Of a stretch of DNA of 58,220 bases, positions 166 to 53,976 are shown piece by piece. The stretch is from Clostridiales bacterium (GTDB lineage Bacteria > Bacillota > Clostridia > Lachnospirales > Lachnospiraceae). Position 1 is the stretch's first letter, and each line of letters opens with the position of its first letter. A model generated the notes under the pieces. That model was not told the DNA's origin. It saw nothing but the letters and a program-made list of their open reading frames with translations, and made no database searches. The DNA is taken from the NCBI GenBank assembly GCA_029100885.1, contig JAQXPY010000042.1, forward strand, positions 1 to 58,220, in the 5' to 3' direction. Position numbers and translations under genes: made by a program.

Positions 166-466
166 ATCTTATCCTCCTGAAAGTGTAGATTATTTGTACA
201 ATCTGTTGTTGATCGATCATCTGTCCGGCACCCGGCAAAGTGATTTTTCTTCTGAATATCGTGCCGTGTGCTCCTGATGTGTCATGGTGTGTGCTGTTAC
301 TATTCAGCACCCGGTAAAATACATTCGCAATTCACTCGCCTTTGGCTCGCTTCTTGCTCATGTTTTTGCCGTCTGCTCCTCAGACCCGTCACGATCTCAT
401 ACGGAAAAATATGCAGGCACATTTTTCCTACTGATATCGCGGCATGTGCTGAATAGTTACCGTTTT

Positions 467-3026: not shown

Positions 3027-5336
3027 TTAAAGCTTGTTTCTCTGGATCTTTCCGCTGACTGTCTTAGGCAGTGAATCGCGGAATACTACTATACGAGGAT
3101 ACTTGTAAGGAGCAGTCTTTTCCTTAACATAGTTCTGGATATCCTTCTTGAGCTCTTCTGTAGGCTCCGTACCCTTTACAAGCACGATGCTTGCCTTAAC
3201 GACCTGACCTCTCGTCTCATCCGGCTCGGCGGATACTCCGCATTCTAAAACATAAGGAAGCTCCATGATGACAGACTCGATCTCGAAAGGTCCGATACGA
3301 TAGCCGGAGGACTTGATGATGTCGTCGGTCCTGCCCACATACCAGAAGTATCCGTCCTCATCTCTCCATGCCAGATCGCCTGTGTGATACCAGCCGTCGT
3401 GCATAGCTCTCTTTGTGGTCTCGGGATCATTGTAATAGCCCTTGAAGAGTCCGCAAGGAGTACCCTTGGAATAGTTGATGACGATCTCGCCCGGCTCTCC
3501 TGTACCGACTGACTCCCCGTCGGAATTTACGAGGTCGATCTGATACATAGGACTCGGCTTGCCCATTGAGCCTGGCTTTGGAGTCATTCCTACGAAGTTT
3601 CCGACTGTCAGCGTTGTTTCTGTCTGTCCGAAGCCCTCCATGATGCTCAAGCCCGTAGCTTCCTTAAATCTGTCAAATACTTCAGGGTTCATCGCCTCAC
3701 CGGCTATGCTGGCATGCTTGATGCTTGACAGATCGTATTTGCTGAGATCCTCCTTGATAAAGAAACGGTACATCGTAGGCGGAGCACAGAAGGTAGTGAT
3801 ATTGTATTTCGCGAACAGAGGAAGCAGATCGTCGGAATGGAATCTGTCGAAATCGTATACAAAGGTTGCTGCTCCGTTCATCCACTGACCGTAGATCTTC
3901 CCCCAGAGAGCCTTGCCCCAGCCTGTATCCGATATGGTGAAGTGGATGCCGTCAGGATCCACATCGTGCCAGTAACGGGCTGTTGCAAAATGACCGAGAG
4001 GATATTTGCAGCTGTGCTCCACAGCCTTCGGATACCCGGAGGTACCGGAGGAAAAGAGCATGAGCATGGTATCTTCTCCGCAGATGCATTCGCCTGTGCG
4101 GCGGTAACGGCTTGAATACATATCATATTCGTCATCGAAATCATGCCAGCCCTCTGCTTCGGCTCCCTCACAGAGACCGCCTGTCATGATCTTGAGCTCC
4201 ACGGTAGGGCACTGAGGCAGAGCCTTTTCGACCTCCTCATGAACGGTGCCGAAGGAGGTGCAGACGACCGCCCTGACAGATGCCGCATTGAAGCGGTATT
4301 CCAGATCCTTTTTAAGCAGCTGGTCTGTGGCAGGTATGGCAACGGCTCCCAGCTTGTGCAGGCCTACGAGAATAGGCCAGAATTCCCAGTTTCTGCGAAG
4401 AAGCAGAAGCACCTTATCACCCTTTCTGATACCCTGTGCCTTGAAATAATTGGCTGCTCTGGCGCTCATTTTCTTCATATCGTTGAAGGTGAAGCGGCGC
4501 TCGTTCTTTTCACGGTCAAGGTGGAGCATGCACAGACGGTCAGGCTGCTCTTCGGCGACAGCGTCCACAACATCAAAGGCAAAATTAAAGTTTTCTGTAT
4601 TCTTAAATACTAGCTTAGTCGGATAGCCTGCCTCATTCTCCTCTGTCTGTATAAAATCTTCGACGAAATTAGGCACAGGCTTGCGGTACACGGCAGGAGC
4701 TGTCTGAACAGAAGCACTGTTTCTCAGGTGACCGTCCTTCCATACTACCTCCGAACCCTCTTCAGGGAGAATGACTGAAAGGAATGTGACATCCTCTCCG
4801 TTGAGAGCTATCATTCCGTGAGGATTTGAAGAGCTGTAAAAGGCACTGTCACCCACATTAAGAATCTCTTCGTGTTCACCGATCTTAAGCTTCATAGAGC
4901 CCTTGAGTACTATATCGAATTCCTGACCGGAATGGGTGACCTGATGGATAGGAGCAGTTTGCTCCTCCTCGGAGTATTTGTATGTTACCCAATACGGATC
5001 TGCCTTACGGTTTTTGAAAAGAGGTGCAATGCTCTTGATCTCAATACCCGGCTCTACAGCTGTGATCTGTCCTTCACCGGCTCTTGTGATCTCATAGCCT
5101 GTAAGCCGCGGGCTGGTTCCCTCAAGCAGCTCCATCATTTCAACGCCGAACACATTGGCGCATTTGTGAATGAAGGAGAACGGAAGGTCTGCCTCACCCT
5201 GTTCGTAGAGCTCGTAATCCGAAAGGCTGAAGGCGGTAAGAGCAGCCATCTCCTCGGTGGAATATCCGCTGTCGAGACGGAGCTGTCTGATTCTCTCGGC
5301 TACCTCATGAAGCATTTTTCCTGTTGTTTCTGTCAT
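3027..5336 (-). CDS. XRE-HTH + cupin domain fused to a medium-chain (ACSM/Macs-like) AMP-forming acyl-CoA synthetase, 769 aa, catalytic motifs intact
   Basis: HTH (RIRQLRLDSGYSTEEMAALTAFSLSDYELYEQGE) and cupin (GQEFDIVLKGSMKLKIGEHEEILNVGDSAFYSSSNPHGM) are present. Intact adenylation motifs: A3 LFSSGTSGYPKAV, A5 GFGQTET, A7 YHTGDLA, A8 GRTDDIIKSSGYRIGPFEIE, A10 PKTVSGKIQR. RBS GGAGGAAAAG lies upstream of the ATG at 5336. Confidence 0.9.
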   Translation of the reverse strand: MTETTGKMLHEVAERIRQLRLDSGYSTEEMAALTAFSLSDYELYEQGEADLPFSFIHKCANVFGVEMMELLEGTSPRLTGYEITRAGEGQITAVEPGIEIKSIAPLFKNRKADPYWVTYKYSEEEQTAPIHQVTHSGQEFDIVLKGSMKLKIGEHEEILNVGDSAFYSSSNPHGMIALNGEDVTFLSVILPEEGSEVVWKDGHLRNSASVQTAPAVYRKPVPNFVEDFIQTEENEAGYPTKLVFKNTENFNFAFDVVDAVAEEQPDRLCMLHLDREKNERRFTFNDMKKMSARAANYFKAQGIRKGDKVLLLLRRNWEFWPILVGLHKLGAVAIPATDQLLKKDLEYRFNAASVRAVVCTSFGTVHEEVEKALPQCPTVELKIMTGGLCEGAEAEGWHDFDDEYDMYSSRYRRTGECICGEDTMLMLFSSGTSGYPKAVEHSCKYPLGHFATARYWHDVDPDGIHFTISDTGWGKALWGKIYGQWMNGAATFVYDFDRFHSDDLLPLFAKYNITTFCAPPTMYRFFIKEDLSKYDLSSIKHASIAGEAMNPEVFDRFKEATGLSIMEGFGQTETTLTVGNFVGMTPKPGSMGKPSPMYQIDLVNSDGESVGTGEPGEIVINYSKGTPCGLFKGYYNDPETTKRAMHDGWYHTGDLAWRDEDGYFWYVGRTDDIIKSSGYRIGPFEIESVIMELPYVLECGVSAEPDETRGQVVKASIVLVKGTEPTEELKKDIQNYVKEKTAPYKYPRIVVFRDSLPKTVSGKIQRNKL

Positions 5337-5488: not shown

Positions 5489-5757
5489 AAAAAAGCCCGT
5501 CCCAAGAAAAAACCTTGAGACGAGCTGCTTATATGCATACCCGCGGTACCACTCAAATTGCGCTTTGACACGCCACTCATCAGACTCCTGCAAGTCCTGA
5601 GCACTAACGTAGCTTACACGTGAGACCCTACCCGGTATTCGCTCGGATCTCCGACTCGGAAGTGATGGATCATTGGGATGCCCTTCGCCCTGCTTCCAGC
5701 CAGTGACAGGTTCTCTGTTCTCCGGACGCTTCCCGATCGTCTTCGTCAATGTCTTTT
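5489..5757 (-). promoter_or_regulatory. T-box riboswitch leader (candidate specifier AUC = Ile) with intrinsic terminator, upstream of the 3027-5336 gene
   Basis: Elements on the minus strand: the Stem I base GGAAG...CUUCC; an AGAGA bulge followed by the distal loop UCACUGGCUGGAAG; an F-box-like ACGUUAG; and the T-box core AAUUUGAGUGGUACCGCGG (rc of 5541-5560). The terminator is AGCUCGUCUCAAGG-UUUUUU-CUUGGGACGGGCU (rc of 5494-5526) followed by a U-run. The candidate specifier is rc of 5664-5666 followed by A. Confidence 0.85.
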
Positions 5758-5762
5758 GACAC

Positions 5763-17430: not shown

Positions 17431-17675
17431 TATTAATATTTTGCCGGATTTTTTATTTGAAAACTGCGGCAGCGTGACTATATCCGGGGCTGGGCTTCAG
17501 TCCCGGATGTAGCTGCATAATAGTGCGAGCTCTGAAAGGTATTATTTCGAATGTCTGACCACATTTTTGATAGTCGCAAGCTGTTGTGTCTGTCAGAGCT
17601 GCTGCGAAAAAGCAACATCAAGTAACAGTTCCACAGAAACTGTTGCGGTTTTTAAGAAAAAGGGGATATAAAGAA

Positions 17676-18224
17676 TTGTTAGGGGATAAGGTTAGGGAAG
17701 CCAGAAAGAGCAAGCATATTACGCTTGAACAGCTGGCCGAGGCAAGCGGACTGACTGCAAGTTATATTTCGCAGTTGGAAAGGAATCTGACAGAGCCTTC
17801 TATTTCTTCGCTAAGAAAGATAGCCCAGGAGCTGCAGATGCCGATTTATGCTTTTCTTGAAGAGGAGAGTCCGCAGACATTTGTGATCAGAAGGGGAAGG
17901 AGAAAGTCCCTGAGACTTGAGCAGAGCGGAATAGAGTATGAGTACCTTACTCCTCTGGGTGCAAATCGCAATCCGATGATGGAGATAGTGGAGTTCAAGC
18001 TCAAGCCGGGCAAATGGACAAATGATGACTATCTGCGTCATTCACTTTCCGAGGAGTGCATAGTTGTTCTTGAAGGCGCGCTGACTGTTGACTGCGTGGA
18101 CCAGACTTATATTCTGGAGCAGGGTGACAGCATTTACCTGAACAACAATACACCGCACAATATTTATAATCACACTGATAAAAATGCCGCAGCGCTGTTT
18201 TTTGCAACGCCGCCGGTTTTGTAA
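17676..18224 (+). CDS. XRE-HTH + cupin transcriptional regulator (stand-alone); TTG 17676 preferred, GTG 17586 is an alternative start
   Basis: HTH LGDKVREARKSKHITLEQLAEASGLTASYISQLERN followed by a C-terminal cupin (ECIVVLEGALTVDCVDQTYILEQGDSIYLNNNTPHNIYN). AGGGGA lies 9 nt before the TTG. Confidence 0.75.
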   Translation: MLGDKVREARKSKHITLEQLAEASGLTASYISQLERNLTEPSISSLRKIAQELQMPIYAFLEEESPQTFVIRRGRRKSLRLEQSGIEYEYLTPLGANRNPMMEIVEFKLKPGKWTNDDYLRHSLSEECIVVLEGALTVDCVDQTYILEQGDSIYLNNNTPHNIYNHTDKNAAALFFATPPVL

Positions 18225-18237
18225 GGAGGAAAAAGCA

Positions 18238-19176
18238 ATGAAGATCGGATTTCTCGGTTGCGGAGCTATCGGAAGCATCTATGCAGGTTATCTGACAAAG
18301 GCTCATGAGGTATGCGTGGTTGATACCTTTGCACCGGTCATCGAAGCAGTAAAAAAAGACGGAATTCTTATTGACGAATGTGTACCGGGATCGGGAAGCG
18401 GAGAAACAGTCTCATTCAGACCTGCAATGGCATCTACCGATCCGAAGGAGATTGGAGTTGTAGATATTCTTATCGTCTTTGTAAGATATATGTTCCTTGA
18501 GGCTGCCTGCAGAAATGCACTCCCTATGATAGGACCTGACACTGTGGTAGTAACACTTCAGAACGGTATCGGCAACTATGATGAGATCGCAAAGGTCGTT
18601 CCTGAGGATCAGATCGTAATAGGAAACACAGCCTTCGGCTCCACCGGCTTAGCCCCGGGACATGTAAAGCATACAGGAACCGGAACCACATTCATGGGAA
18701 CTCTTGCAGCGCCTATCGAAAAGGCAGAGAAGGCTGCGGCAGCACTCAGAGAGGCCGGTTTTGAGGTGGTAGTCAAGGAAAATGTTATGGAGGTCATCTG
18801 GCATAAGGCTTTTGCCAATGTTGCTATCAATGCTATTACAGCTCTGATGGATCAGACTAACATTTTCATCAACGACAATCAGTATGCCAGAGAGGCTGCA
18901 AGACTTCTGGTGGAGGAGGCTCTTGATGTTGCCATTGCCAGCGGCTGCAGGTTTGACAGGGAAGCGGAGCTTGCGCATGCCTATGAGATCGCTGTGGCTA
19001 CAGGTACGAACAGATCCTCAACGCTTCAGGATGTTACACACCAGAAGGAGACTGAGATCAGGATCATCAACGGAGCGGTCTCCAGGATCGGACGCCAGTA
19101 CGGGATCCCTACTCCGTATAACGATATGATCTGTCAGCTTATGCTTGCAAAGCAGTCAATTTATCTCGGCAGATAA
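18238..19176 (+). CDS. panE: 2-dehydropantoate 2-reductase (ketopantoate reductase, PanE/ApbA family)
   Basis: The ATG at 18238 follows AAGGAGGA. It has an N-terminal Rossmann fold MKIGFLGCGAIGSIYAG and the C-terminal STLQDV...KETEI motif typical of the family. Confidence 0.85.
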   Translation: MKIGFLGCGAIGSIYAGYLTKAHEVCVVDTFAPVIEAVKKDGILIDECVPGSGSGETVSFRPAMASTDPKEIGVVDILIVFVRYMFLEAACRNALPMIGPDTVVVTLQNGIGNYDEIAKVVPEDQIVIGNTAFGSTGLAPGHVKHTGTGTTFMGTLAAPIEKAEKAAAALREAGFEVVVKENVMEVIWHKAFANVAINAITALMDQTNIFINDNQYAREAARLLVEEALDVAIASGCRFDREAELAHAYEIAVATGTNRSSTLQDVTHQKETEIRIINGAVSRIGRQYGIPTPYNDMICQLMLAKQSIYLGR

Positions 19177-19285
19177 TTGTAATAACACAGACTGCCGGTC
19201 TCTTCGCGCCCATACCTGCTGCAGGTCAGCCGGCACGAAGAGACGCGGTCACTGATTTACTTCATTTACGGAGGATTATTAAATC

Positions 19286-20812
19286 ATGTTTCAGATCATG
19301 AGTGCCAGAGAGGCAGTGAGCCTCATCAAGGACGGCGATGTAATCGGTCTTAATTCATTCGTAGGTATTGCGAATCCTGAAAAGATTCATGATGCGATCA
19401 CCGAGAGCTTCAGAGAAACAGGCTCACCGAAGAATCTGACCCTCGTATCCGCTTCCGGTTTCGGAACCTTTGATCCAAACAGAAGTGCGGAAAACTATAT
19501 CCGTGAAGGAGCTGTAAGCAGGATCATCTGCGGCCATTACGGAGCAATGCCAAGCACAAAGAGGCTGGTTCTGGAGGACAAATTTGAGGCTTATAACATA
19601 CCTCTAGGTCCGATGTCCCATACCATGCGTGCCCAGGCAGGCGGACATGACGGCTATCTCAGCAAGGTAGGCCTCGGGATTTTTGTGGATCCGAGAGTGG
19701 AGGGTCCGGGACTCAACAGCATTTCCCGGGACAAATCCCTTGTCAAGGTTGTTGATGTGGACGGAGAGGAGTATCTTCAGTACAGACTTCCTGCATTTAA
19801 TGTAGCCATAATCAAGGCCAGCAGCGTGGACGCATACGGAAATATTTCCTTTGAGGACGAGTACTGTACGATTGATGCTCTTTCCATTGCTCAGCTCACA
19901 AAGCGAAACAAGGGAAAGGTAATAGTTCAGGTCGACAGGGTAAAGCATGATTTCAGCAGACCGAGGGATGTCATCATTCCGGCTGTATTCGTGGATGCGG
20001 TAGTGGTATGTGAGCCTGAGACCTCCAGCGATGCCAACGGAACACTTTCAGGAAACATTCATGTTCCGTCAACTCATATGCAGTATTGGTACAGAAGGCT
20101 TTCCGATCAGAATGCCAAGAGCGGAAAAGCAAGAAGTGATTTTTCGGCTGATATTATCGGCAGAAGAGCGGCGAAGGAGCTGAAGAGGGGAGACATCGTT
20201 AATATCGGTGTAGGTATCCCTGAGATGGTCAGCAAATATGCAGCTGCAGGAGGTATCCTTCAGGATCTTACACTTTCTGTTGAGTCAGGAGGAACAGGCG
20301 GTCTTCCTGCCGGCGGACTTGACTTCGGAGCAATGATAGGCGCAGGAACCATCTGTGATATGGCGAACCAGTTTGATTTTTATGACGGAGGCGGTCTTGA
20401 TATCTGCTTCATGGGCGGTTTAGAGATGGACAGGTTCGGAAATGTCAACTCACACAGAGGCGCTGATCAGGTCTCCGGTATCGGCGGCTTCGGAAATATT
20501 ACTGCTGCGACTCGCAATGTGGTCTTCTGCTTTACCTTCAATACAAAGGGACTTAATGTTACCGAGGAGAACGGAAAAGTTGTGATCAATTCCGAGGGAA
20601 GCATTCCAAAGCTTGTTGAGAAGGTCAGAAGCATCAGCTTTTCCGGAGAGAGAGCCATTAAGAACGGACAGCATGTTATCTATGTAACGGAGCGATGCGT
20701 ATTTGAGCTGAAGCCGGAGGGTCTGACGCTTATTGAGGTGTATCCGGGCATAGATGCACAGAAGGATATCTTTGACAGGCTTCCTTTCAAGGTAATTGAC
20801 GGCAGACAGTGA
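19286..20812 (+). CDS. Family-I acyl-CoA:carboxylate CoA-transferase (YdiF/propionate CoA-transferase type)
   Basis: N-terminus SAREAVSLIKDGDVIGLNSF and a central LSVESGGTGG (catalytic Glu region). Single-chain fused A/B architecture of about 510 aa. Confidence 0.85.
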   Translation: MFQIMSAREAVSLIKDGDVIGLNSFVGIANPEKIHDAITESFRETGSPKNLTLVSASGFGTFDPNRSAENYIREGAVSRIICGHYGAMPSTKRLVLEDKFEAYNIPLGPMSHTMRAQAGGHDGYLSKVGLGIFVDPRVEGPGLNSISRDKSLVKVVDVDGEEYLQYRLPAFNVAIIKASSVDAYGNISFEDEYCTIDALSIAQLTKRNKGKVIVQVDRVKHDFSRPRDVIIPAVFVDAVVVCEPETSSDANGTLSGNIHVPSTHMQYWYRRLSDQNAKSGKARSDFSADIIGRRAAKELKRGDIVNIGVGIPEMVSKYAAAGGILQDLTLSVESGGTGGLPAGGLDFGAMIGAGTICDMANQFDFYDGGGLDICFMGGLEMDRFGNVNSHRGADQVSGIGGFGNITAATRNVVFCFTFNTKGLNVTEENGKVVINSEGSIPKLVEKVRSISFSGERAIKNGQHVIYVTERCVFELKPEGLTLIEVYPGIDAQKDIFDRLPFKVIDGRQ

Positions 20813-20924
20813 TGCTGCCGATGCCGGATATCGCCGGTGATAACGGCAGGAGCAATAATGCTTAGTCTATCGGCCGTCCGACAGTGCTGGATTTGTCAAA
20901 TTCAATAAAAATATGATTTTTTTC

Positions 20925-20952
20925 TTGACAATTCTTCCTCGGATACTATAAT
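20925..20952 (+). promoter_or_regulatory. Promoter of the ilvE leader (TTGACA-16 nt-TATAAT)
   Basis: TTGACA at 20925-20930 and TATAAT at 20947-20952. Confidence 0.55.
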
Positions 20953-20990
20953 GAAAAACAAGTTTTAGTAAGCGGTTCAAGGAGAAAACA

Positions 20991-21062
20991 GTGAGTAGAT
21001 TATTTACTGCAAACATCATTATCGTCGTGAAGGGTGTCGTGATCGAGACTCTTAATTCGTAA
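20991..21062 (+). CDS. Leader peptide of the ilvE attenuator, 23 codons: (M)SRLFTANIIIVVKGVVIETLNS
   Basis: GTG start 6 nt after AAGGAGA (20979-20985). Eight of the 23 codons are Ile or Val (4 each), in two runs (III-VV and VVI), and there are 2 Leu codons. The TAA stop is at 21060-21062, just before segment 2 of the attenuator. Confidence 0.6.
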   Translation: MSRLFTANIIIVVKGVVIETLNS

Positions 21063-21133
21063 GCAATGGAAACGACGATACCGCTATAAATGTATTTTAT
21101 GACCTCGTTTCCGCAACGAGGTCTTTTCATTTT
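21020..21133 (+). promoter_or_regulatory. Four-segment transcription attenuator (1:2, 2:3 anti-terminator, 3:4 terminator) upstream of ilvE
   Basis: Segment 1 UAUCGUCGU (21020-21028, the Ile/Val codons) is perfectly complementary to ACGACGAUA (21072-21080). GGAAACGA (21068-21075) is perfectly complementary to UCGUUUCC (21105-21112). The terminator is GACCUCGUU (21101-21109) / AACGAGGUC (21115-21123) followed by UUUUCAUUUU. Confidence 0.65.
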
Positions 21134-21154
21134 CAAGAGAGGAAGGAAATCATC

Positions 21155-22225
21155 ATGGAAATTAAAATCACAAGAACAGAAAATCCCGGACAGAAGCCTG
21201 CAGATGAGTCAAAGCTCGGCTTCGGTAAGATCTTTACAGATCATATGTTCATCTATGACTGGGACGATCAGATCGGTTGGCACGATGCCAGAATAGTACC
21301 TTTCGGAAGCCTTGAGCTTCATCCGGCAGCTACTGTATTCCATTATGCTCTCGAGGTTTTTGAGGGACTTAAGGCATACAGAACAGCTGATGGAACAGTA
21401 CAGCTTTTCAGACCTGACGAGAACGCAAAGCGTATGATCAATTCAGCAGAGAGAATCGGCCTTCCTCCTGTCCCTGTTGATGATTTCGTACAGGCTGTCA
21501 AGACACTTATTTCCGTTGACAAGGACTGGTGTCCGCATTCAGACGGATGTTCTCTGTATATCAGACCGTTCCTGTTCGGTACCGATGCCAGCGTAGGACT
21601 TCATACTCTTCATTCAGCTAAGTTTGTAATTATCGTGGCTCCGTCAGGCGCTTATTACGCAAACGGAATCAATCCTGTTGACATCATGATCGAGACAGAG
21701 GATGTAAGAGCTGTAAGAGGCGGTACAGGATACACAAAGTGCGGAGGAAACTACGCGGCTGCCCAGAGAGCAACAGTTGAGGCCGAGAAGAAGGGCTTCT
21801 CTCAGGTACTGTGGCTGGACGGAGTTGAGCGTAAGTATATTGAAGAAGTAGGTTCCATGAACATTATGTTCAAGATCGACGGAAAAGTGGTTACTCCGAG
21901 CATCGAGGAGAAGACGGTTCTTCCGGGCATTACCAGAAAGAGTATGCTGGAGGTGCTTCGCGACAGGGGATTTGCTGTTGAGGAGCGCAAGATCAGTATT
22001 GAAGAGATCGAAGAGGCTGCCAAGGCAGGAAAGTTAGAGGAGGCCTGGGGTACAGGCACGGCTGCTGTCGTTTCTCCTGTAGGAAGACTTCAGATAGACG
22101 GTGTTGATTATATTATCAATAACGGAAAGATAGGCGAAGTTACACATATGCTTTACAATACACTTACGGGTATTCAGTGGGGCAAGATCGAAGATACGTA
22201 CGGCTGGACAGTAAAGGTTGACTGA
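21155..22225 (+). CDS. ilvE: Branched-chain amino acid aminotransferase
   Basis: FGKIFTDHMF...FHYALEVFEGLKAYR...GGTGYTKCGGNYAA...PGITRKS...GTGTAAVVSPV are class-IV BCAT signatures. Confidence 0.92.
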   Translation: MEIKITRTENPGQKPADESKLGFGKIFTDHMFIYDWDDQIGWHDARIVPFGSLELHPAATVFHYALEVFEGLKAYRTADGTVQLFRPDENAKRMINSAERIGLPPVPVDDFVQAVKTLISVDKDWCPHSDGCSLYIRPFLFGTDASVGLHTLHSAKFVIIVAPSGAYYANGINPVDIMIETEDVRAVRGGTGYTKCGGNYAAAQRATVEAEKKGFSQVLWLDGVERKYIEEVGSMNIMFKIDGKVVTPSIEEKTVLPGITRKSMLEVLRDRGFAVEERKISIEEIEEAAKAGKLEEAWGTGTAAVVSPVGRLQIDGVDYIINNGKIGEVTHMLYNTLTGIQWGKIEDTYGWTVKVD

Positions 22226-22258
22226 TCTTTATTATTTTTATATAGTAATTACAAAAAT

Positions 22259-22296
22259 GAGGCGGGCAGTATTGATCCGCCTCCTTCTGTATTTTT
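22259..22296 (+). terminator. Probable ilvE terminator
   Basis: GAGGCGG(11-nt loop)CCGCCTC hairpin at 22259-22283 followed by a T-rich tract (ctgtattttt). Confidence 0.45.
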
Positions 22297-22329
22297 CAGA
22301 CGTCCCCTAAGGAGAAAGGAACGAATAAT

Positions 22330-22602
22330 ATGGATAAAATGATCATAACAGTAGTCGGCAAAGACACCATAGGCATTATCGCAAAGGTCTGCACGTATCT
22401 TTCAGACAATAATATCAACATCCTCGACATTTCGCAGACTATCGTTGACGAGTTTTTCAATATGATCGTTATCGCCGATATGTCGAAAAGCACCCGCGAA
22501 TTTGCTGCTATTGCCGATGAGCTGAGAAAGCTGGGAGAGGATATGGGTCTTCGCATTCTGGCACAGAAGGAAGAGATCTTTACAAAGATGCACAGAATCT
22601 GA
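22330..22602 (+). CDS. ACT-domain protein (UPF0237 family)
   Basis: [34 protein letters not shown] is an ACT fold signature. It is paired with the downstream UPF0210 gene, as is usual. Confidence 0.85.
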
Positions 22603-22619
22603 GACGGAAGGGTATTAAA

Positions 22620-23984
22620 ATGATCAGTATTAATGAGGTTCTTGAAACCAATAAGATGATAGAAAGAGATCTTCTTGATGTCCGTACTATTACTCTCGGT
22701 ATCAGTCTTCTGGACTGTGCGGATACGGATCTTCATAGACTCAATGAAAATATCTACAATAAGATAACACGTTTGGGCAGGGATCTGGTCAGAACCGGTG
22801 ATGAGATTGCCGGTGATTTCGGTATTCCTATAGTAAACAAGCGTGTTTCGGTCACACCGGTCGCTCTGGTGGGCGCAGGAGCCTGCAGGTGCGCGGATGA
22901 TTTTGTATCTGTCGCAAAGACTCTCGACAGAGCGGCAAAGGCAATTGGGATCAACTTCCTCGGAGGATATTCTGCACTTGTCAACAAGGGAATGACCGAA
23001 GCCGACAGGCTGCTGATAGAGTCCATACCACGGGCTCTTTCAGAGACGGATTTTGTCTGCTCCTCCGTAAATGTAGGCTCCACAAAGACAGGTATCGATA
23101 TGGATGCGGTAAGACTGATGGGAAAGGTCATCAAACAGACCTCAGAACTTACGGCTGACAGGGATTCGATCGGATGTGCCAAGCTGGTAGTATTTTGTAA
23201 TGCACCTGATGACAATCCGTTTATGGCGGGAGCCTTTCACGGAGTTACCGAGGGAGATGCGGTGATAAATGTAGGAGTCAGCGGACCGGGAGTTGTCAAG
23301 GCAGCCCTTTCCAAGGTCAGAGGAGAGAGCTTTGAGGTGCTGTGCGAGACTATAAAAAAGACGGCCTTCAAGGTTACAAGAGTCGGACAGCTCGTTGCTA
23401 AGGAGGCGGCTTCCAGATTAAATGTCCCGTTCGGTATCGTAGACCTGTCACTGGCTCCTACTCCGGCGGTAGGAGATTCGGTCGCGGAGATTCTTGAGGA
23501 GATAGGTCTGGAGAGGACAGGCGCGCCGGGAACTACAGCAGCGCTTGCCATACTTAACGATCAGGTCAAGAAGGGCGGAGTCATGGCATCCTCATATGTA
23601 GGAGGGCTTTCGGGGGCATTTATTCCGGTAAGTGAGGATCAGAGCATGATAGATGCTGTTGAGGCCGGTGCATTGAGCCTGGAGAAGCTGGAGGCCATGA
23701 CCTGTGTATGCTCAGTCGGTCTTGATATGATAGCGATCCCGGGTGATACCTCCGCAGCCACGATATCCGGCATTATTGCCGACGAGGCAGCTATAGGCAT
23801 GATCAATCAGAAAACAACCGCTGTCAGACTTATACCTGTTGCGGGAAAGAATGTTGGTGATAAGGCTGTGTTCGGCGGTCTGCTTGGATATGCTCCTATT
23901 ATGGCAGTAAACAGCTTTTCCTGTGAGGCTTTTGTTAACAGAAAGGGCAGGATCCCTGCACCGATCCACAGCTTTAAAAACTGA
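22620..23984 (+). CDS. UPF0210/DUF711 'PFL-like' family protein
   Basis: [13 protein letters not shown]..., a conserved C-terminus ...[11 protein letters not shown] and a length of about 450 aa are typical of the family. Confidence 0.85.
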
Positions 23985-53514: not shown

Positions 53515-53586
53515 ATCTGCGCAGCGGTTCTCCGCTGCGTTTTTTCAAAATCAGATCTGTGCAGCGGTTCTCCGCTGCGTTTTTTT
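53515..53586 (+). terminator. Tandem duplicated rho-independent terminator (two ~31-bp copies, 40-bp period, 1 mismatch)
   Basis: ATCTG[C/T]GCAGCGGTTCTCCGCTGCGTTTTTT occurs at 53515-53545 and 53555-53586. Each copy forms GCAGCGG-TTCT-CCGCTGC plus a T-run. Confidence 0.8.
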
Positions 53587-53588
53587 AA

Positions 53589-53623: not shown

Positions 53624-53976
53624 AGAGCAGCATAAACGGTCGCTGCCGCAGCAAAGGCTGCGGGAGAGGAAAGTCCGGGCTTCACAGGGCAGGATGCCTG
53701 ATAGCGTCAGGTGGGAGCGATCCTAAGGAAAGTGCAACAGAAAGTATACCGCCTCAATGCCGCGTCATTGGGGTAAGGGTGAAATGGCAGTGTAAGAGAC
53801 TACCGGCTCTGCGGTAACGCGGCAGCGCATTGTAAACCCCATCCGAAGCAAGTCCATGAAGAAACGATATGGCGGCCCGTCATGTTTCGGGTAGGACGCT
53901 TGAGGTATACGGTGACGTATATCCTAGATAGATGACCGTTCACGACATAACCCGGCTTACAGTGCTGCTCATTTTT
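53624..53976 (+). ncRNA. rnpB: RNase P RNA (bacterial, apparently type A)
   Basis: Universal blocks GAGGAAAGTCCGGGC, ACAGAAAGTATACCGCC, GGTAAGGGTGAAA, GTAAACCCCA, AGATAGATGA and ACATAACCCGGCTTA are present. P1 pairs GAGCAGCA (5') with TGCTGCTC (3'). The ends are approximate (+/-5 nt). Confidence 0.9.

Follow-up and report, generated by a model that had tools for sequence, protein, structure and literature searches.

A probable ribosome-mediated isoleucine/valine attenuator upstream of ilvE in a Clostridiales genome

In the enterobacterial attenuators of ilvGMEDA (leader ilvL), ilvBN (leader ivbL), trp, his, leu and thr, an open reading frame (ORF) rich in cognate codons precedes a terminator, the RNA between them can form alternative pairings of four segments (1:2, 2:3 and 3:4), and the stop codon of the ORF lies just before segment 2. 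The ilvE gene of Escherichia coli is itself within the attenuated ilvGMEDA operon, and IlvE is the last enzyme for both isoleucine and valine. Here we describe a leader of like logic before ilvE in a stretch of 58,220 nucleotides (nt) from a Clostridiales bacterium of the Lachnospiraceae (assembly GCA_029100885.1, contig JAQXPY010000042.1), which we call the window. Judged from sequence comparison and RNA folding, this leader is probably a ribosome-mediated Ile/Val transcription attenuator of ilvE.

Firmicutes are usually said to use T-boxes, CodY or riboswitches for their branched-chain amino acid (BCAA) genes. The original prediction of the present element, made from the window alone, held that such genes in Firmicutes are more usually under T-boxes or protein regulators. 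The rarity that this implies for leader-peptide control is overstated, since an attenuator peptide has been described for ilv-leu of Staphylococcus aureus and leaders have been predicted for leu-ilv of Lactococcus lactis and in Streptococcus (PMC5794164); bacilli, too, are reported to have His leaders (PMC2965389). Upstream open reading frame (uORF) attenuators are also routinely found through comparative genomics (PMC8632094, PMC10272879). A literature search of incomplete coverage found no description of such an attenuator before ilvE in Clostridia. The attenuation mechanism is already textbook, and BCAA leaders are known in Firmicutes; the one unusual structural detail of this locus is an outer helix, here named P0.

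Elements of the ilvE leader and a proposed mechanism

The elements of the leader and the gene that it precedes are as follows.

20925-20952, forward strand: sigma-70-type promoter; TTGACA at 20925-20930, a 16-nt spacer and TATAAT at 20947-20952, matching the consensus at 12 of 12 positions
20971-20975, forward strand: 5' arm of P0, GCGGU, just 5' of the Shine-Dalgarno sequence; pairs with 21081-21085 in the minimum free energy (MFE) fold
20980-20984, forward strand: Shine-Dalgarno sequence AGGAG of the leader ORF, read from the sequence, 6 nt ahead of the GTG at 20991
20991-21062, forward strand: leader ORF of 23 codons plus stop, (M)SRLFTANIIIVVKGVVIETLNS; start GTG, stop TAA at 21060-21062
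21020-21028, forward strand: segment 1, UAUCGUCGU, inside the Ile/Val run (codons 10-13); pairs with 21072-21080
21030-21053, forward strand: inner hairpin inside the leader ORF (AAGGGU.GUC...GAG.ACUCUU), in the MFE fold and in the RNAalifold consensus
21068-21080, forward strand: segment 2, GGAAACGACGAUA; 21068-21075 pairs with segment 3 and 21072-21080 with segment 1
21081-21085, forward strand: 3' arm of P0, contiguous with segment 2; CCGCU in this span, with ACCGC, the complement of GCGGU, at 21080-21084
21101-21133, forward strand: intrinsic terminator; 5' arm 21101-21109, 3' arm 21115-21123 (segment 4), U-tract 21124-21133
21137-21147, forward strand: ribosome-binding site of ilvE, GAGAGGAAGGA, ahead of the coding sequence
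21155-22225, forward strand: ilvE, the regulated gene, encoding a class II branched-chain aminotransferase (NF009897, 460 bits against a cutoff of 307; TIGR01123, 385 bits)

All of the elements of an attenuator (promoter, Shine-Dalgarno sequence, ORF, and the 1:2, 2:3 and 3:4 pairings) are thus present, in the right order and with the right spacing. The promoter, which had been predicted with exactly these hexamers and this spacer, is the best promoter-like site within 19000-23000, and transcription would start near 20959. The ORF also agrees with what had been proposed, both in its 23 codons and good ribosome-binding site and in its eight Ile/Val codons, which are four Ile and four Val. These are codons 9-13 (21015-21029) and 16-18 (21036-21044), so that Ile and Val make up 8 of the 10 residues across codons 9-18. 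The six frames of the window contain 627 short ORFs of 15-40 codons, of which the leader ORF alone has at least eight Ile/Val in 10 residues. The peptide, MSRLFTANIIIVVKGVVIETLNS (the translation gives VSRLFTANIIIVVKGVVIETLNS with the GTG start read as Met), has no match in Pfam. On the minus strand, an 89-residue ORF at 20867-21136 overlaps the leader; it was rejected as a gene, as it is not conserved in relatives.

At the RNA level, the 1:2 pairing joins UAUCGUCGU (21020-21028) to its exact reverse complement, ACGACGAUA (21072-21080). The 2:3 pairing, an antiterminator of 8 base pairs (bp), joins GGAAACGA (21068-21075) to UCGUUUCC (21105-21112), again with exact complementarity. Both pairings are those originally proposed. 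The predicted terminator at 21101-21123 with its U-tract upstream of ilvE was likewise recovered, as a stem of 9 bp, 5 of them G-C, with a loop of 5 nt, followed by TTTTCATTTT. Segment 3 reaches 21112, and as the antiterminator and the terminator stem share 21105-21109, the two are mutually exclusive. The leader stop codon lies before segment 2, as expected, with a gap of 5 nt.

The MFE of the leader RNA is -49.4 kcal/mol, compared with -36.6 ± 3.7 kcal/mol for shuffled sequences (z = -3.47), and none of 200 shuffles was as low. The MFE fold includes the 1:2 helix, the inner hairpin, P0 and the terminator. Within the window, the calculated energy of the P0 + 1:2 domain is -35.9 kcal/mol; that of the 2:3 antiterminator is -8.6 kcal/mol, or -10.2 kcal/mol with hairpins in its loop, against -13.5 kcal/mol for the 3:4 terminator. 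In these predicted energies, a 2:3 pairing weaker than 3:4 is the classical attenuator pattern. Because the energies rank the terminator above the antiterminator, the choice between the two structures must be kinetic. The inner hairpin could act as a pause hairpin or as a scaffold.

From this arrangement we infer that the ORF is translated and that ribosome stalling sets up a kinetic competition between the structures, by which ilvE transcription would be coupled to the supply of charged tRNA-Ile and tRNA-Val. The consensus promoter would yield a leader transcript of about 175 nt, on which a ribosome would translate the 23-codon ORF. With ample Ile and Val, the ribosome would reach the stop codon, 5 nt from segment 2, and cover the GGAAA with which segment 2 begins; known footprint sizes suggest that a terminating ribosome covers the RNA to about 21072, that is, the first five bases of the segment. 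Alternatively, the ribosome may depart and segment 2 be captured by segment 1 together with P0. Either way, segment 3 would be left free to form the 3:4 terminator, and transcription would end before ilvE. A shortage of charged tRNA-Ile or tRNA-Val would instead stall the ribosome on codons 9-18, where it would mask segment 1. Segment 2, through GGAAACGA, could then pair with UCGUUUCC of the terminator 5' arm, the terminator would not form, and polymerase would read through into ilvE. Where the ORF is not translated at all, P0 and the 1:2 helix would fold and termination would be the default.

Distribution of the leader and evolution of its reading frame

A one-genome-per-species scan with IlvE gave 80 ilvE loci, in which the leader was recognised by its ORF and core pattern. 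It was found at three of them (L001, L002 and L004, from Lachnospiraceae/Clostridiales metagenome-assembled genomes with 87-88% identical ilvE) and was absent at every locus with 62-70% identical ilvE. A metagenome scan with the back-translated core pattern gave one contig, L081, a near-copy of L002, while a protein search combined with contig inspection added L082-L088, L090, L098/L099 and L101. The same leader thus stands before ilvE in six further lineages of Lachnospiraceae/Clostridiales metagenome genomes, whose ilvE is 83-88% identical. It was not present at L100, L102 or L094-L096 (the last grouped with L006), and an nhmmer profile search of 102 loci and the window found no further copies and none before other genes. 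This absence from other relatives and from other genes indicates that the leader is confined to a narrow clade and to ilvE. At L029, an Ile-rich ORF before ilvE was considered as a leader and rejected; it proved to be the C-terminal end of an unremarkable small membrane protein whose gene has a terminator of its own.

The comparisons below are of seven independent lineages, all from this one narrow clade, with the window denoted WIN. Each line gives the leader peptide, followed by the P0 arms (5'/3').

WIN: MSRLFTANIIIVVKGVVIETLNS; GCGGU / ACCGC
L001: MRSTFADNIIIVVKGIVIETFNL; GGCAC / GUGCU
L002: MSFNCLNNVIIVVKGIVIETLNF; AAAGUGC / GCACUUU
L082: MFNNFADNIIIVVKGVVIETFNL; GUGCGC / GCGCAU
L090: MFYLLSENVIFIVKGVVAETPSC; UACAG / CUGUA
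L098: MNYRFAELSIIVVQGVVAETLDF; UCGCUU / AAGCGA
L101: MSHNYAYKVIVVVKGVIEETFDL; GCUCAGCA / UGCUGAGC

In all seven the ORF is 23 codons long, despite variation at every column of codons 2-8, and a purine-rich Shine-Dalgarno-like motif lies 6-11 nt ahead of the start codon. Non-coding lengths vary, from 38 to 76 nt between the -10 box and the start codon and from 40 to 47 nt between the stop codon and the CC(U/C)CG core of the terminator 5' arm. The distance from the stop codon to segment 2 is 3-5 nt in every lineage. Frame 0 is open in all seven, whereas frames +1 and +2 each contain at least one stop codon in every lineage. Across the core, codons 9-20, the numbers of variable columns at the first, second and third codon positions are 7, 2 and 8, the changes being first-position A/G exchanges (Ile-Val swaps) and synonymous third-position changes, and the core of the other lineages retains Ile or Val at 6-8 of 10 residues. 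This codon-position pattern with its Ile-Val swaps is the signature expected of a translated ORF under selection for 'Ile or Val' codons.

Selection on a coding sequence might also be exerted through the peptide itself. The 23-codon ORF would then encode a functional micropeptide, rich in Ile and Val for reasons of peptide function, and the hairpin would be merely a leaky or constitutive terminator or a stabilising element. Indeed, the motif V-(K/Q)-G-V-(V/I)-x-E-T is conserved beyond the needs of a simple codon run. However, its K/G and E/T residues are encoded by the arms of the inner hairpin, itself conserved, and a synonymous change from AAG to AAA there is offset by a non-synonymous one from CUU to UUU that restores pairing, which argues for constraint at the RNA level. 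The N-terminal third of the peptide is unconstrained, Pfam has no match for it, and the overlap with the antiterminator, the spacing of the stop codon and the ilvE context are accounted for by attenuation and not by a peptide function. Of the explanations considered here, we regard the micropeptide as the least probable.

The peptides also bear on what an attenuator of this kind might sense. Ribosome-mediated attenuators in Bacillus are mostly antibiotic-responsive (PMC4191407, PMC9226507), so the leader might respond to general translation stress in the manner of bmrB, vmlR or erm; or else a CodY-like repression of the promoter might dominate, with the attenuator secondary, as ilvE is CodY-regulated in other Firmicutes (PMC5794164) and an operator-like palindrome surrounds the -35 box of L090. 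Against both, what is conserved in the peptide is the presence of Ile or Val, the two being interchanged, and the target gene makes Ile and Val. As for CodY, the box AATTTTCWGAAAATT with up to four mismatches is missing at the window promoter (-120 to +90) and in most lineages; searched across the lineages, it is nowhere conserved, with three-mismatch sites in L090 only. In addition, a perfect TTGACA-16-TATAAT promoter is present in all seven lineages, as expected for control exerted after initiation. Altogether, a stress-responsive or CodY-dominated leader seems to us quite unlikely, if somewhat less so than a micropeptide.

The L090 palindrome, at 1211-1256 of that locus, is near-perfect and flanks the leader -35 box (AAATGGCTGAAAATT ... 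AATTTTCAGCCATTT). It occurs in this lineage only, each half is three mismatches from the CodY-box consensus, and it has the look of an added operator. Another lineage-specific feature is a 13-nt direct repeat, AAACAATGTCATT, which occurs twice in the leader ORF of the lineage formed by L002 (2827-2865), L004 and L081; one copy carries the ATG start and the second places an out-of-frame ATG just before the Ile/Val codons.

Conservation of the pairings and the outer helix

The original prediction had staked itself on conservation of the mini-ORF and its pairings in relatives, and both are kept in the seven lineages, with the qualifications given below. RNAalifold, run on eight sequences, returned a consensus that comprises the 1:2 helix, the inner hairpin (AGGGU.UC / GA.ACCCU) and the terminator, with four pairs showing compensatory changes. 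In this OFF-state structure 95.3% of alignment cells are paired, against 30-59% when the registers are slid, and its covariation score was matched by 4 of 500 shuffles. Taken singly, the terminator has 97.5% of cells paired and three pairs changed on both sides, the inner hairpin 94.6% with one compensatory change from G-C to A-U, and the 1:2 helix 92.9%. For the 2:3 antiterminator the figure is 93.8%, against 33-64% for slid registers. Compensatory changes, which had been proposed as a check, accompany the retained antiterminator and terminator pairings and the inner hairpin; by columns, the covariation of the antiterminator is weak.

We also compared the duplex energies of cognate arms with those of 1854 pairings of arms taken from different lineages, a test that does not depend on register. 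For 2:3, the cognate mean of -13.1 kcal/mol was better than the mismatched value of -11.3 ± 0.55 kcal/mol in every case (0 of 1854 as good), with a range of -11.8 to -14.5 kcal/mol over all seven lineages. For 3:4, the cognate mean was -14.5 kcal/mol against -12.3 ± 0.85 kcal/mol, the fraction as good being 0.0076. The antiterminator and terminator have also changed jointly in L090, where GGAAACGA/UCGUUUCC becomes UCCGGAG/CUCCGGA and a terminator U-A pair becomes C-G.

The same test was used for P0 because MAFFT misaligns its arms. P0 is a long-range helix, overlooked in the original prediction, which joins sequence 5' of the Shine-Dalgarno to sequence 3' of segment 2. A helix at this position is found in 7 of 7 lineages with different sequences, and the cognate arms average -12.7 kcal/mol against -8.3 ± 0.56 kcal/mol when mismatched, with 0 of 1854 as good. 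Given this covariation, the default fold in our modelling is a domain closed by P0 and the 1:2 helix, with the whole leader ORF inside it. As to the role of P0 we infer only that it might strengthen default termination or, since it adjoins the Shine-Dalgarno sequence, limit re-initiation. In a milder form of the direct-sensor idea taken up below, P0 could gate the leader to a single round of translation or be joined with the antiterminator in a pseudoknot, either of which would adapt the leader to the uncoupling of transcription from translation in Firmicutes.

Some further structural features were noted. The bases after the -10 box, AAAAACAAGUUUU (20953-20966 in the window; also in L001, L002 and L082), are near-identical in five of the seven lineages and can pair with the U-rich spacer just 5' of the terminator, which would extend P0 into a long rod formed by the 5' untranslated region and the spacer. 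An extra GC-rich hairpin lies between the attenuator terminator and the ilvE ribosome-binding site in L090 (approximately 1450-1490) and L101 (approximately 455-500). A start-codon hairpin seen in several lineages is not claimed, its covariation not being significant (fraction 0.15).

The closed domain suggests another way in which the leader might work, namely as a structured RNA that senses without translation, either in the manner of a riboswitch or by binding a protein or tRNA. The P0 + 1:2 domain (20971-21085) would be its aptamer, stabilisation of which would release segment 3 to the terminator; the ORF would then be a coincidence or, at the most, a sequence that overlaps the sensor. P0 does resemble the closing P1 helix of a riboswitch, in that its arms covary and the 3' one directly adjoins the antiterminator strand. 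Moreover, there is a conserved nucleotide block (GUGAAGGGUGUCGUG...GAGACC) in addition to the conserved inner hairpin, and L090 retains P0 and the inner hairpin without the pairing of codon run and segment 2. Such a sensor leaves unexplained, however, the Shine-Dalgarno sequence, the start codon, the invariant 23 codons, the single open frame, the 3-nt periodicity of substitution with its Ile-Val swaps, and a stop codon fixed at 3-5 nt before segment 2. Nor did any of the 4227 families of Rfam 15, amino-acid leaders and the T-box (RF00230) included, match 20800-21200 at E ≤ 10 with cmscan. We know of no riboswitch for BCAAs. We therefore consider an RNA sensor that dispenses with translation to be improbable, though slightly less so than the alternatives discussed above. 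Much the same small probability attaches to a variant in which the P0-closed domain, with the inner hairpin and the invariant nucleotide block, is a direct sensor either alone or together with the uORF as a dual RNA/ribosome switch; its input might be a BCAA-related metabolite, a tRNA, or an ACT-domain protein such as the one encoded downstream of ilvE.

The formation of 2:3 behind a stalled ribosome was simulated with transcripts ending before segment 4 and a 28-nt ribosome mask placed over the Ile/Val codons. Over the stall positions tested, 2:3 was the best structure at most of them in L001, L082 and L098, and at some of them in L002 and WIN. Masking of full-length transcripts was less informative, as the MFE fold always retained the terminator, 3:4 being more stable than 2:3. 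Thus, of the comparison of alternative folds that had been suggested, the classical order of strength (2:3 below 3:4) was borne out, whilst switching by a stalled ribosome gave a mixed picture among lineages.

Several observations weigh against attenuation of the classical kind. In L090 and L101, 2:3 was not the best nested fold when a single ribosome masked the RNA, because P0 and the start:stop pairing were retained; a structure with both 2:3 and P0 would be pseudoknotted, which a nested folder cannot represent. At several stall positions in WIN, alternative folds are nearly isoenergetic. The column-wise covariation of 2:3 is not significant, with 97 of 500 shuffles reaching its score. The 1:2 helix shows no covariation (cognate -9.9 kcal/mol against -9.7 ± 0.24 kcal/mol, fraction 0.18), as is to be expected with a conserved codon side. 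The 1:2 duplex has an energy of -9.9 to -13.1 kcal/mol in six of the seven lineages, and L090 is without the pairing of Ile/Val codons and segment 2 (-1.3 kcal/mol); it has a pairing of the start and stop regions in its place. The leader is also missing from close relatives with 83-88% identical ilvE (L003, L005, L006, L091 and L097) and is accordingly dispensable. Finally, Johnson et al. (Nature, 2020) are said to have found transcription and translation uncoupled in Bacillus subtilis; if such uncoupling applies to these bacteria, a pause element would be required to set the timing.

Despite these points, the 1:2/2:3/3:4 logic originally proposed holds, because the features of the ORF, the spacing of stop codon and segment 2, and the 2:3 and 3:4 pairings are conserved; the qualifications come from P0 and from L090.

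Genomic context and comparison with known systems

The genes upstream of the leader, and a second RNA element with the gene that follows it, are listed below.

17586-18224, forward strand: regulator with helix-turn-helix (HTH) and cupin domains, upstream of the leader
18184-19176, forward strand: 2-dehydropantoate reductase (PanE/ApbA), upstream of the leader
19286-20812, forward strand: coenzyme A (CoA)-transferase, FadX-like and well under the model cutoff, directly upstream of the leader
5513-5758, reverse strand: T-box-like leader, 67 bits against an Rfam gathering score of 93, E about 1e-12, found at E ≤ 1
3027-5336, reverse strand: unusual 769-residue HTH, cupin and AMP-binding fusion protein, downstream of the T-box-like leader

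An acyl-CoA synthetase, if taken to be the gene directly upstream of the leader, is not what is found at 19286-20812, which encodes the CoA-transferase instead. The order CoA-transferase, leader, ilvE is common to the window, L090 and L098. Downstream of ilvE are genes for a 90-residue ACT-domain protein (PF13740; 22330-22602, forward strand), which could bind amino acids, and a 454-residue DUF711/PRK05313 protein (22620-23984, forward strand). This pair follows ilvE in nearly all close relatives (L082, L086, L089-L093, L097 and L100-L102), with or without the leader. A promoter-like TTGACT-17-TATAGT lies at 22218-22246, between ilvE and the ACT gene.

The original prediction had also placed a T-box in the window, before an acyl-CoA synthetase gene. 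A T-box-like leader with an Ile specifier is indeed present before the gene for the AMP-binding enzyme, 15 kb from the ilvE leader; its T-box sequence is the canonical AAUUUGAGUGGUACCGCG, and its specifier, AUC (Ile), has an A after it. Its score of 67 is under the threshold of 93, and at the Rfam gathering threshold no T-box was found in the whole window. Just downstream, at 467-2755 on the reverse strand, is a 762-residue paralogue of the HTH-cupin-AMP-binding protein, and in L007 and L009 an AMP-binding gene lies directly upstream of ilvE. The arrangement of T-box and AMP-binding gene may link the activation of branched-chain acids to Ile supply. Two RNA mechanisms dependent on tRNA charging thus appear, from their sequences, to be present in the window, and the two might act in a single pathway, such as one that makes BCAAs from branched-chain acids by way of an acyl-CoA ligase and IlvE. 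Elsewhere in the window, Rfam gave two weak matches that are probably chance or remote. Clostridiales-1 RNA at 302-454 (reverse strand) reached 29 bits, its gathering score being 48; SorY at 53522-53587 (forward strand) reached 32.8 bits, its gathering score being 111, and lies a short distance upstream of the gene for RNase P RNA (53624-53975).

If confirmed, the ilvE leader would extend ribosome-sensing attenuation of the trp/ilv type to gut and rumen Clostridia (Lachnospiraceae relatives). At about 175 nt, with a consensus promoter, a 23-codon ORF and natural variants, it offers a compact test case for the timing of attenuation under possible uncoupling, and for the contribution of a covarying helix that encloses the leader ORF. 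For annotation, it adds a cis-regulatory element that is unannotated and absent from Rfam. Together with the Ile T-box on the AMP-binding enzyme gene, it gives a hint of how BCAA supply may be regulated in these bacteria.

T-box leaders (RF00230), like the proposed attenuator, sense tRNA charging and act through competition between terminator and antiterminator; the ilvE leader, however, lacks a T-box sequence, Stem I and specifier loop, is too short, and would sense charging indirectly, through the ribosome. A T-box, a riboswitch or a known leader family was rejected for it on Rfam scans, of the whole window at the gathering threshold and of 20800-21200 at E ≤ 10. The uORF or ilvB-II motif of Corynebacterium ilvBNC (PMC10272879, PMC11857589) is, like it, a Gram-positive system with a BCAA-codon uORF and a multi-hairpin attenuator; that system, however, belongs to Actinobacteria, lies before ilvB and has a sequence unlike that of the window leader.

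The leaders of S. aureus, L. lactis and Streptococcus likewise serve BCAA genes of Firmicutes by means of a short BCAA-rich ORF and terminator/antiterminator alternatives. The S. aureus leader is Leu-rich, lies before ilvD and acts together with CodY, and ilvE of S. aureus is described as CodY-repressed and not attenuated (Kaiser et al., 2018; PMC5794164). In contrast, the window leader is Ile/Val-rich, stands before ilvE without a CodY box, and belongs to Clostridia (Lachnospiraceae); the sequences are unrelated. Compared with the enterobacterial attenuators, to which its logic is closest, the leader has no detectable homology of sequence or structure, is found in Clostridia and has the single gene ilvE as its target. 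Its peptide would sense Ile and Val with almost no Leu, and the extra helix P0 encloses its ORF.

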